A DNA stretch of 64,000 nt, from assembly GCA_012295275.1 (NCBI GenBank), contig CM022675.1, forward strand, positions 6,386,001 to 6,450,000, in the 5' to 3' direction. Source of the DNA: Chrysomallon squamiferum. Its lineage: Eukaryota; Animalia; Mollusca. The notes beneath the pieces are model-generated. The model was not told where the DNA came from and ran no database searches. It worked only from the letters and a program-made list of their open reading frames with translations. Shown here piece by piece: positions 5,926-10,262 of the stretch. Every line of letters begins with the position of its first letter. Position 1 is the first letter of the stretch. The position numbers and the translations under genes are program-made.

Positions 5926-8900
5926 TTAGTTACATATTGGTTTCACACAGGAAGATAATACCAATTCAGCTAAGGATTTCATGAATTTTAGAATAGGACT
6001 CCATCCTTCTTGTTCCCATGGTTTCAGTAACCAAGGAAACCACCGAAACGGAATTGTCCCGAAGTGTGACAAGTCGTGGTTAAAATAAACGTAGTTGGAA
6101 GCTAAGATTCCATCCACGACAAGAGTTCCTGTTTCAGTCAATGGCGCATACAGTCCTGTGGAAAAATATTATATATTTTATTTTCATCTAATTAAAATAA
6201 CCTCTATATGTAAAACTAAACAGAACCAACGATTTATTATTTATAATTCTTCTTCTCTTTATGATGATGATGATGATGATGATGATTGATTATTATTATT
6301 ATTATTATTATTATTATTATTATTATTATTATTACCTGGTTTCTCAGAAAATGAAATATCAACAACTCGCTCTGCGCAAAGACCACTTGGACACGAAAGT
6401 GTGGAGAAAATATAATCACCTCGTTTTACCAACATAGCATACCTTAATGTGAAAGAAAAGAAGAAGTATATCTATTACTATCTTTGAATCCTCTTTATCC
6501 TGTGTAAATATCTGGGTTTGTGTCTCTCAGTGCGTATATTGCTCAGTTTTGTTCTGTAGACATGTCTTGTTTTCTTTTTGTGCTTTAAAATAAACTTTCA
6601 ATACAGCTTAATTCGACAGGTAGCTAGAAAGACAAAAACGTTTCAGTGGTATCAGATTCCTACGGACAATTCCACAGTGACAGGCGTAACATTGAGAGGA
6701 TTTAGAGGTCATTACAAATGCCCTGATTGTTAGATCGTTTCCCCAGGAACTTTGTCCCGAGTAAGAAACTTCCCATATCGTTTTGTTGTCAAATGAGAAA
6801 AGAGTTCATTATTACCAATCATTAACATAGACTAACACTTCTTCTGTCCTCAGAATTTTCCACTTCTTAATTATTTTTTTTTTTTGAAAGAAGTAGACAT
6901 AGCAACTATTTTCGTTGGAAACGAGGCATTCGTTTGATCCTACTTGAAAATAGCTCAGGAAATGAAGAAAGAAGAATTGTGGATAAAATATCGTTCTGCA
7001 TTTGTCATCTAGTGGTAATTTGTGAAATCACCTTTTGTGCTAAAGATGCTGAATGTGTAAGTCATCAGGAAAGATTTTTCTTGATGACGTATTATTTTCA
7101 AAATGGGCATTTTGATGTTACAGTAACCACTTTTTCCAGTAACAGATGTTACAGTTTTCAAATGACGTAATTTCTTCTTCTTTTTTTTTACTTTGCTTTT
7201 TATATTTTTTGTAACAGACGTTATATCGACTTAGCAAATTACTTTAAATCCATCTTTTTGTTTCTTTTTTGTTTTCTACTTTCAGAAAATATTTTGAGCT
7301 TCTTTTGTTTAAAACTGACACTACTGATCTTAACAAACTGGGCAGAATGAAGATCAAAGCCAATTTTGTATGGGTGATTTGATAGGCTGAACATTCCTGT
7401 TGTGTAGTTTGTAATGTTGATGTCATAGCTGTCTGTGTCAACATGAATTTTAAGTTATTCAGAAACAGATTTTGTTTTCTCATGTCCCAGGAGCCGTGGA
7501 ATTGCCCGTGAGAATACTCACTCAGTTCTCATATCAACAGTTTTGTTGTTGTTGGACATAAATATCAGATGGTCCCCTGTGATGGAAAAGTGATTTCCCT
7601 TTTCTGTCGTAAACGTTTGATGTGTGGCGTTGGTGTTGGGAAATCGTTCCATGAAAGTTTTTACTTCAGTAAATATCCGTTTTCCATTTTCCACTGAAAC
7701 CCAGTAACAACAACCATAAAAACATAATAATAACAACAAAAAAAAAACAAAAACAACAACAACAATAATAATAATAACAGTAATAATATACTGGTAATAA
7801 CTATGGAAACGTAAGGTAGATATTCGTGAAGAAATCGTAAAACAAGAAATATTATTTTTTTAATAAACAGTGGTGTCGACTATATTTTAATGGAAACTAT
7901 AAAATAATGCTAGAATAGGCAATGACAATAACGTTTTCGTGTTGTAATATTTAAACTTGTGAGGAATAGAGAATAGGAATAGAGAATATATCAACGTAGT
8001 TCTTTGTTACTGCATTTCACAGTTACTCCATCTTATTTGAATGCATGTAGATCGATAGGAAATCATCGAAACTTAACAAATATCAGTGACATCAGAATGT
8101 TCTTTCAACGTGCTCTGCCCATGTCCATCTTCTTTCTGTAACTTGCCGAGTCACATTCATGTTCTCTTGTTTAACCCGACGTTTGATTTTTCACCTCCCG
8201 TCAACTTCCATTTTTGTGTGTGTGTGTGTGTGTGTGTAAGTAGAAGTTTGTTTAGTTCGAGTCCGACTCTCCACTGAAAACGTCATTGCAGGAAGTGAAG
8301 AAGAGTTGCGTACCTTTCTCTTCACGGTTCCAAAGTTTCTCTCGAAAACATCTCGCTGCTTCACAAATGCTATCCGACCAGCAGTGAGTTTTCTTTGAAT
8401 CTTTCTGCGTCTTGTCTGTCCCAGACTGACGTACCTTTTAGGGTTGACGCATATTGGTATACCGTTCTCTGACATCACACTTCTTTTTCACCTGTTTATT
8501 TTCAGTTTATGTTTTCTGCTTCCACCTGCAAACTCGTGTGGTATTTCTCACAGCTCGTGTGGTGTTTGAGCACAGTGGAGCATGTCCAAGACGAAACGAA
8601 GACTGATCTGCTCTTCAGCTATCCACTAACCTAGGTTTTAAAAACAGCACTCGAGTCCTGCAGTGAACAGCTTGGGTAATATTGTGTCATTTTCAATATC
8701 GACGAAAACCATGTAGAAGCGGTTGCGGTAGTTTTGACATAGCTTATTTGGTTGATTTACGATATCAGTACATGGTCGTGTGTGGTTTTCTCCCCGAGTC
8801 ACTTCTGTAGTCTTTATAATTATTTATCTTACTTTATTTTGCTTGTTTGATCTTGTTGTTTTGCTTTCTTAGTGGGGGATTCTCGCTGTTTTTTGTTTGA

Positions 8901-10262
8901 TTGTATGTATGTTGTATGTGTCTTACAGCAGTTTTATTAGTAGGTGCTATATATTTGATAGTATATATATATATATATATATATATATATATATATATAT
9001 ATATATATATATATATATATATATATATATATATATATATATATATATATATATATATATATATATATATATATATATATATATATATATACTATGAAAT
9101 GTCTACTTCATTAAATCAGTCTTGTTTCATTTGTTGTGTTTTTCCCTCCCGTGTAAATTAGACTTTTCTATAAGCATTTGGTGCGCGACTTAGCTAGCGA
9201 CTTCCGTGTGCCATTTTCTCCTTTTGATGTTTCAATATTCCTATGGTCTTTTCCTGGTGCTGTATAATCGATCATATCTCTTAGACTCGCTATCACTTCC
9301 CACTTTGTTATATCAATGATAACTTTCGGGTCGTTGTGAATGAAGGTACTTACTTAACTGTATATGGCTGTGTGTAAAAAAATCTTCTGTTCATCCCTTT
9401 GTCTCAACCTGATCTTGTATTTTTCTACCTTGTGTCTTGCATGGCCTAGAATCTAGGATATTTCGTCTTTTCTCAGTCTGGTTCAGTTTCTTTTAGCCCA
9501 AACACAAACTAATAATCAATATATGTTACTTATTCCAAGATCTTTGTAATGCTGTTAACATCAATTTCAATAGTTAAATCAAAAAATAGTAATTGAAATC
9601 ATTATTCACCTGTCAGAACCTTCTGACCTATAGTTAGATGTCTCATTTTTACTACTGAGCCATCTTCAATTATAACATTACTGTCACCATGGAAACAGCA
9701 TACATCGTAACAGCATGTTCCCTTCCGGGGCCTTTCATTACAACCGCAGTGGCAGTTATTCGATACCATCATTATGGCTCTGCTACCTCTAGTATACCGA
9801 GGGCAAACACATTTATATCCTGAAATACAAAAACACTGAGTAGAGCAGGAAGAAAGAGGAAGGTTCTGTTACAGAGAGAGGGAGACAAAAAAAAAAAAAA
9901 AAAAAAAAAAAAGTGCACTTAAAATGAAAGACGAACTCTTTGTCAAACAGACAAACGAAGTATGGGAAATTTGTTAAACAGAATCGCATACTAATTGACA
10001 TACACATACAAGCACAAAATATAAATCAGACGAGATAGACAGAGAGAGAGAGAGAGAGAGAGAGAGAGAGAGAGAGAGAGAGAGAGAGAGAGAGAGAGAG
10101 AGAGAGAGAGAGAGAGAGAGAGAGAGAGAGAGAGAGAGAGAGAGAGAGAGAGAGAGAGAGAGAGAGAGAGAGAGTTTGAGTTTACAGCTTGAAAATAAAC
10201 TATCAAATATTACCTGTTGCTGATTCTAGCAAAACTAAGAGAAACAAAGCAGATAATTTCAT
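5926..10262 (-). CDS. Secreted cysteine-rich peptide-Hog (Hint + sterol-recognition region) fusion protein, copy B, intact, 255 aa
   Basis: Five phase-compatible exons: 10262-10214 ([17 protein letters not shown], signal-peptide-like), 9819-9610 ([69 protein letters not shown]), 7693-7522 (…[10 protein letters not shown]…SITGDHLIF…), 6442-6336, 6155-5926 ([22 protein letters not shown]…[13 protein letters not shown]…TAA). Total 768 nt, open throughout. Confidence 0.88.
8963..9090. repeat. (TA)n microsatellite
   Basis: Perfect dinucleotide run in intron 2 of Hog copy B. Confidence 0.95.
10041..10174. repeat. (AG)n microsatellite
   Basis: Perfect dinucleotide run in intron 1 of Hog copy B. 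Confidence 0.95.

Follow-up and report, generated by a model that had tools for sequence, protein, structure and literature searches.

The 64,000-nucleotide window analysed here (Chrysomallon squamiferum, assembly GCA_012295275.1, contig CM022675.1, positions 6,386,001 to 6,450,000 of the forward strand) contains a five-exon gene at 5926-10262 on the minus strand. Its predicted product is a secreted-type precursor in which a small cysteine-rich peptide, the cargo, replaces the Hedge signalling domain ahead of a Hog autoprocessing domain. Judged by sequence similarity, the gene likely belongs to the Lophohog-type hedgehog-related (hh-related) genes of molluscs. We describe its structure and domain order, the multi-copy family to which it belongs, a cysteine frame common to snail and chiton proteins, and the residues at five active-site positions. 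Our preferred reading, to which we give a probability of about 0.45, is that of a precursor of the Lophohog type, from which the Hog domain is predicted to free the cargo without cholesterol, probably at a gut or symbiont-facing surface. All positions refer to the window.

Gene structure, cargo and relatives

The five exons (10262-10214, 9819-9610, 7693-7522, 6442-6336 and 6155-5926) have AG acceptors, GT donors and agreeing phases, and the spliced frame is 768 nt long, encoding 255 amino acids (aa) with one stop. These splice sites, phases and open frame bore out the gene model of an earlier reading made from the letters alone (hereafter, the sequence-only reading). The product comprises a 17-residue signal-like leader, the 40-residue cargo with eight cysteines, and a 198-residue Hog domain starting at codon 9697-9695. 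A Pfam search, which that reading had called for, found the Hint domain in exon 2 (E 7e-5), exon 3 (E 8e-9) and exon 5 (E 3e-10); exon 4, searched singly, gave no Hint match. The spliced product was 39-52% identical to 11 annotated mollusc Hog-domain proteins over 185-250 aligned residues. The proposed layout was upheld: a secreted-type precursor that carries a small cysteine-rich cargo where Hedge would stand, with Cys1 and TxxH intact. The features of the gene are as follows (SRR, sterol-recognition region).

10214..10262, minus strand: exon 1, predicted signal peptide, 16 codons and the first base of Gly17
9610..9819, minus strand: exon 2, cysteine-rich cargo and the first 29 residues of the Hint domain
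9698..9817, minus strand: cargo, 40 aa, Cys spacing 1-16-1-1-8-0-3, final Cys abutting the cleavage Cys
9695..9697, minus strand: Hint Cys1 (CF motif), predicted nucleophile of the N-S acyl shift
7522..7693, minus strand: exon 3, middle of Hint, with Glu at the Asp46 position (7649-7647) and TxxH (7580-7569)
6336..6442, minus strand: exon 4, Hint, holding two closely spaced cysteines that the Gigantopelta aegis relatives share
5926..6155, minus strand: exon 5, end of Hint, with Asn at the Cys143 position (6096-6094) and the stop
within 5926..6155, minus strand: exon 5 tail of two helices, retaining His, Pro and Arg of SRR helix 1 but lacking HWY

The evidence for exon 1 is less direct than for the other four exons. 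It is predicted from the anatomy of a signal peptide, the short upstream gap, the missing Hedge and the 5' DNA of a broken neighbouring copy (copy B, below), which retains ~170 nt resembling the DNA upstream of the intact gene's start codon, up to that codon. When start codons were surveyed, a single start, besides one in-frame upstream start, yielded a hydrophobic leader ending at a strong in-phase donor; a further candidate at 11180 had a poor donor. The gene upstream on the same strand is mitochondrial poly(A) polymerase/TUTase-like, and its last long frame ends 1421 bp ahead of the start codon. The sequence-only reading had named an upstream Hedge exon as the result that would speak against it. 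The DNA has no room for one upstream, and no Hedge match was obtained for any of the nine minus-strand open reading frames (ORFs) of at least 40 aa in the 1421-bp gap. On the short gap and these Hedge-free ORFs, a true hedgehog gene with overlooked upstream exons was rejected. Three RNA runs gave no match on exon 2 and no intron-spanning joint in 5900-7720, which is not evidence on expression; one 144-nt contig from an RNA run (depth 3.8) continues from exon 4 into the intron.

Single-exon searches were empty, both with exon 2 (in a 5.8-billion set, 50% representatives and metagenome contigs) and with exon 5 alone. A three-row exon 5 profile matched 10 proteins among 151 candidates; since only this profile found relatives, the range of the family is under-sampled. 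All 10 matches are from molluscs: nine RefSeq models of G. aegis and the 'lophotrochozoan hedgehog-related' protein (Lophohog, APD15680.1) of the chiton Acanthochitona crinita. None of them carries a Hedge label in the Pfam list. Exon 5 scored 53-90 bits against the 11 relatives; in the same program, fly Hedgehog scored 21 bits and human Hedgehog 17. Its score against chiton Lophohog (53 bits) lies above both true Hedgehogs, these being pairwise scores and not a clade test. The name Lophohog was reportedly given by Burglin in Genome Biology in 2008, and the N-domain definition of the naming paper may already cover this cargo. By one published description, Lophohog joins a unique N-terminal domain to a Hog domain (PMC9695228), and the single hh-related gene of A. 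crinita was placed in the Lophohog clade (De Oliveira et al., PMC5103448). The window gene has a Hog domain behind a secreted-type non-Hedge N-terminal part, as Lophohog does, and lacks the Hedge signalling domain of Hedgehog proper. A protein-splicing intein was considered and rejected, as there is no Asn before the motif-J position and no C-extein.

Counted from the predicted signal cut to Cys1, the cargo has 40 aa, eight Cys, a mass of 4579 Da and an isoelectric point (pI) of 8.9. Its Cys spacing and that of one G. aegis protein, XP_041356242.1 (P0001; 1-13-1-1-8-0-2), represent the same eight-Cys frame, and the last six Cys are in common with chiton Lophohog (P0010; 1-1-10-0-1). These frames were reproduced by 1 of 200,000 shuffles for XP_041356242.1 and by 7 of 200,000 for chiton Lophohog, with pattern ranges set post hoc, and they occur in none of the other 13 proteins compared. 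The alignment scores of the cargo are only modestly close, being reached by 28/5000 shuffles (XP_041356242.1) and 86/5000 shuffles (chiton Lophohog); BLAST of the cargo against XP_041356242.1 gave E 0.002. The sequence-only reading did not recognise the N-domain. A precedent does exist in these two proteins, and the counter-case named by that reading, a peptide matching a described hh-related N-domain, is partly realised through their Cys frame.

The best alignment score of the cargo was obtained with the Cys-rich segment that follows the astacin domain of P0008, a score reached by 0/5000 shuffles, and a CxCxC core may be common to the two sequences. Four of the 10 matches are astacin-Hog fusions (P0003, P0005, P0006 and P0008, all G. 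aegis RefSeq models). Their astacin domains precede the same Lys46 Hog cassette, with a Cys-rich segment between in three of the four, and from these sequences the cassette looks swappable among unlike secreted cargos. A likeness of the cargo to metallothionein, vWC/SVWC or anemone defensin-like peptides was considered, and Pfam gave it no support. The cargo matched no Pfam family, and sequence searches of the PDB with the cargo or an exon 3 profile were empty or irrelevant. In the Atlas, exon 2 retrieved Hint-type leads alone, all under 0.9, and the XP_041356242.1 cargo retrieved no usable match. Predicted cargo models were below usable quality (AlphaFold on exon 2 alone, pLDDT 39; XP_041356242.1 cargo, pLDDT under 50).

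Chiton Lophohog resembles the window gene in its signal-like leader, its short non-Hedge N-terminal part with CxCxC...CC..C, a Hog domain without Asp46, a PxRWFP tail and the lack of HWY. The window gene differs in that its N-terminal part has two additional Cys (CxC) and runs into Cys1 without a spacer, in having Glu46 for Lys and Asn143 for Cys, and in its many copies versus one in the chiton transcriptome. XP_041356242.1 is 50% identical over 227 residues; unlike the window gene, it follows its leader with a basic stretch, has a 12-residue spacer and retains both Lys46 and Cys143, and its cargo is not cationic. The other eight G. aegis models carry other cargos, four of them astacin. The RefSeq names of the G. 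aegis models ('indian/desert hedgehog protein-like') are automatic and misleading. We also observed that residues 52-75 of XP_041356242.1, from the last cargo Cys to Cys1, align with the end of the Hedge domain of human and fly Hedgehog, a match that may reflect either descent from a hedgehog ancestor or chance.

Active site and copies of the gene

The active site of Hedgehog consists of C1, D46, T69, H72 and C143 (PMC12054796), and we fixed the corresponding columns by alignment to PDB entries 1AT0, 6TYY, 6TD6 and 7E2I. The model of XP_041356242.1 has a confident Hint fold, with 6TYY and 1AT0 as top matches (root-mean-square deviation 1.7). Cys1 and (T/S)xxH are present in 12/12 sequences, that is, the window gene and the 11 relatives. 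The Asp46 column holds Lys in all 11 relatives and in copy C, a broken inverted copy in the window, and Glu in the window gene. At least 11 contigs from one public sequencing run of unrecorded type (X1, in which contig depth is not copy number) carry a first-base change giving Lys in this column. Cys143 is kept in 11/11 relatives and is Asn in the window gene and Ser in copy C. HWY is absent in 12/12, and the F377 position of the tail is Thr in the window gene. Compared with the HhC of Hedgehog (the four PDB entries above; PF01079), the window gene shares the Hint fold, Cys1, TxxH and the His, Pro and Arg of SRR helix 1. It lacks Hedge, has Cys rather than Gly at position -1, and does not keep Asp46, Cys143 or HWY. 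Of the traits of Hedgehog cholesterolysis, it thus has Cys1 and TxxH, and lacks Asp46, Cys143 and the full SRR.

In Hedgehog, the D303A mutant (D303 being Asp46) can still be cleaved with dithiothreitol (DTT) but no longer transfers cholesterol, DTT cleavage is faster in D303A/N/R/E, and D303 guards against non-productive premature hydrolysis (PMC9163320). H433A, Y435A and F377A abolish cholesterolysis (PMC7242414), and HWY lines a modelled sterol pocket (PMC7906309). Given the change of Asp46 to Glu or Lys and the absence of HWY, and carrying the Hedgehog results over by homology, cholesterol tagging by this family is unlikely. The cholesterol tag of the sequence-only reading is weakened by the Glu46 of this gene, the Lys of all 11 relatives and the missing HWY. 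Self-release, its other claim about the chemistry, is uncertain for the window copy: Cys1 and TxxH are intact, but Cys143 is Asn. From its sequence, we put cleavage of the Asn143 copy at about even odds.

According to the preferred reading, the precursor would enter the endoplasmic reticulum and the cargo would form four disulfides. Cys1 would make a thioester by N-S acyl shift, with TxxH helping. Water, not sterol, would resolve the thioester, because HWY is missing and Asp46, which in Hedgehog activates the sterol and restrains hydrolysis, is replaced by Lys or Glu. This would free a 4.6-kDa peptide, its C-terminus unmodified, at a gut or gland surface, and the odds that the peptide acts on bacteria are about one in three.

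Two further copies lie within the first 4.3 kb of the window, copy B on the same strand and copy C inverted, and both are broken.

3832..4037, minus strand: copy B, exon 2, frame broken in the cargo; CxCxC and CC kept, intervening residues different
2273..2434, minus strand: copy B, exon 3, carrying both a stop codon and a deletion
826-997, 1321-1427 and 1683-1907, plus strand: copy C, exons 3-5, inverted, with Lys46 and Ser143, frame broken in exon 5

Exons 4-5 of copy B were not found, nor were exons 1-2 of copy C within the window. The splice sites of copy C are at matching places, and its exons 3 and 4 are equal in length to those of the intact gene (172 and 107 nt). Between the intact copy (A) and copy C, the ratio of non-synonymous to synonymous substitution rates (dN/dS) is 0.49 (P 0.02, 161 codons).

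In X1, exon 2 is traversed by a near-identical contig (depth 46), and a further 17 contigs lie on that stretch. Contigs piled where exon 2 encodes Hint and over exons 3-5, with a depth of ~900-4600 versus ~46 for the single contig through the intron flanking exon 2, and 10-12 contigs covered single variant sites in exons 3-5. Most of the listed exon 2 contigs are confined to the Hint part and end at or near 9697. This pattern indicates that the Hog part is conserved and that the cargos diverge beyond 80% identity. Five contigs diverge from the window exactly at the cleavage Cys, and the consensus of their loose ends is CC-x-x-C (agreement 0.68) immediately ahead of that Cys. A Cys-Cys junction lacking a spacer is therefore not peculiar to the intact copy. 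More than ten copies in X1 is a safe estimate for the family, and tens are likely. A chance splice was rejected in view of the X1 contig piling, the similarity of the relatives and the matching splice sites of copy C.

Three smaller observations were made on X1. An A-rich intron stretch near 7000-7240 also piles up. At 9642, every contig, the near-identical one included, differs from the window, with an Arg-to-Lys change in the N-terminal part of Hint. One contig lacks 1133 bases in 6458-7592, so that intron 3 is largely gone along with the end of exon 3, and is probably a deleted paralogue.

Expression setting and competing explanations

The supplements of Lan et al. 2021 (PMC7895826) contain 27 hedgehog-worded G. 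aegis rows. We dropped seven (three HHAT, two Patched, Wntless and SUFU), which left 20 ligand-type genes. Thirteen of the 20 are in Supplementary Data 2 (oesophageal-gland-high) with log2 fold values of 2.0-8.6, and seven are absent, two of which are adjacent models that we read as halves of a true hedgehog gene. Among the non-canonical hedgehog-labelled genes, 13/18 are gland-high versus 1782/21,438 (8.3%) overall (nominal P 5e-11; 12/14 contigs), a statistic in which paralogues share regulation and reads and are not independent. The antimicrobial, toxin or signalling role suggested by the sequence-only reading is conjectural, and this expression in the gland favours a gut- or microbe-facing one. 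The word 'hedgehog' appears nowhere in the main text of that paper, and the six supplementary files of PMC7736800 have no hedgehog or Hint entry. Supplementary Data 1 of PMC7895826 also places three neighbouring genes labelled as Hedgehog acyltransferase (HHAT/Rasp) on ctg57 of G. aegis.

Several points weigh against the preferred reading, besides the dependence among paralogues. Two of the three copies in the window are broken. Only one of the nine G. aegis matches has the eight-Cys frame, and its cargo is not cationic (pI 5.9-7.7), so that the description of the cargo as basic in the sequence-only reading stands for the window copy and fails for its G. aegis counterpart. The 12-row tree has 1/9 inner branches supported and is built without Hedgehog, Lottia or Capitella rows. 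The gland-high gene ids of G. aegis are unmatched to the RefSeq proteins. The only tissues set against the gland were foot, ctenidium and mantle, a design that does not separate gut from symbiont organ (PMC7895826). In the scaly-foot snail supplements (PMC7142155, 12 of 13 files), the OG list holds one hedgehog-named gene, 2.4-fold. A limpet has 11 hh-related genes (PMC5103448), and the expansion is therefore not tied to vents. Finally, Cys143 is needed for Hedgehog autoprocessing, DTT-driven cleavage included, and C143A and C143D block it (PMC12054796).

The last point leads to the explanation that the window copy does not cleave: it would be a recent duplicate without the second catalytic Cys, secreted whole or decaying, while other members of the family work. 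Asn143 against the Hedgehog requirement speaks for this, as do Glu46, which departs from an otherwise invariant Lys, the broken copies B and C nearby, and a branch of 0.76, the longest after that of the chiton. We nevertheless hold it to be somewhat unlikely. The five-exon frame is open with intact splice sites, the dN/dS against copy C is 0.49, and, as a weak point, the near-identical X1 contig has 0 listed differences in the 122-nt cargo versus 13 in ~620 intron bases. Moreover, copy C is also without Cys143, and the loss therefore predates the duplication. Ser, Thr or Asp replace Cys143 in some moss, red-algal and protist/alveolate Hog domains, whose cleavage is not demonstrated there (PMC2362128).

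Another explanation follows the sequence-only reading, which had raised lipid tagging as a possibility: the Hog domain would attach cholesterol or another sterol, giving a membrane-anchored peptide. The kept His, Pro and Arg of SRR helix 1 fit this, the tail of XP_041356242.1 is modelled as two helices, and Glu is still acidic. In addition, Hedgehog D303H (D46H) remains active (PMC9163320), so that a swap of the base need not end sterol transfer, which counts against the preferred reading as well. With Asp46 and HWY each absent in 12/12, the F377 position Thr and Cys143 lost in the window copy, we regard a sterol tag as improbable. A related proposal is that the invariant Lys46 marks another transfer chemistry, from the thioester to an anionic lipid, a glycan or a protein amine, by which the cargo would be glued to membrane, mucus or matrix. 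Chiton and snail proteins alike retain Lys, even where their cargos are dissimilar (four of the 10 matches are astacin fusions), and the hydrophobic two-helix tail, unneeded for plain hydrolysis, is conserved too. However, no acceptor is known, the window copy has Glu, and the conservation could serve folding or timing; this proposal is a slim prospect.

The role of the peptide is a separate matter, combinable with any of these chemistries. As with the nematode hh-related proteins, the peptide may serve as a ligand in the host's own signalling, acting in gut development or physiology and leaving microbes unaffected. In its favour, Hog domains of Enoplea nematodes carry secreted N-termini of 15-34 residues (PMC2362128), and each chiton transcriptome has one Lophohog relative (PMC5103448). 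We consider it unlikely, as many copies, broken duplicates and diverging cargos on a conserved Hog domain suit families for defence or secretion better, on general knowledge. Nematode and cnidarian hh-related proteins (Warthog, Groundhog, Quahog, Short-hog and Ts Xhog3) also have a secreted non-Hedge N-terminal part, sometimes of 15-34 residues, on a Hog domain (PMC2362128); they belong to another lineage, and their N-domains were set beside the window cargo by description only.

The architecture is known in outline from Lophohog and from nematode Hog genes with cargos of 15-34 residues (PMC2362128). Our search of the open full-text literature found no account of the Lys46 signature, the eight-Cys cargo family, the astacin-Hog fusions or the gland enrichment, which subscription papers and supplements may hold, and no functional study of Lophohog, a name that appeared in just two of the papers searched. 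A 2008 paper described as open, for the nematode proteins, which adduct, if any, non-Hedgehog Hog cargos carry (PMC2362128). The family offers small, expressible precursors, in which a natural Asp-to-Lys swap and a natural loss of Cys143 test both catalytic claims made for Hedgehog. It also provides a tissue lead, the symbiont-bearing gland, in which most of the hedgehog-labelled genes of G. aegis reach high expression. Should the peptides act on bacteria, they would be candidate host tools for controlling chemosynthetic symbionts. The broadest version of this idea is that vent snails use the Lophohog cassette to deliver symbiont-control cargos, with dozens of diverging eight-Cys peptides and astacins, a bacteria-housing gland, and a Lys46 Hint domain that releases the cargo or ligates it to a non-sterol acceptor. 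This version is quite unlikely. If true, it would be a new natural Hint chemistry and, among animals, a self-processing counterpart to the NCR peptides of legumes and the BCR peptides of aphids. BCR and NCR likewise pair a signal peptide with a peptide of six to eight Cys and similar size in a symbiont-housing organ (PMC6594739); as described there, they are without a Hog domain, and the analogy would be one of size and place only.

Neighbouring features of the window

The window is AT-rich animal-type DNA with many microsatellites. Upstream of the gene, 10600-10747 holds a short tandem duplication of ~78 bp that is 87% identical. The upstream neighbour (11683-21632, minus strand) and a second gene (23700-31000, plus strand) form a divergent pair of mitochondrial poly(A) polymerase/TUTase-like genes. 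Both have the Pfam MTPAP central domain, and the first also has PAP_assoc. Annexin exons occupy 39217-48615 on the minus strand, with annexin VI as the best PDB match. Similar sequence occurs there twice (40509-40979 and 48232-48615), which suggests tandem annexin genes or a double-core annexin.

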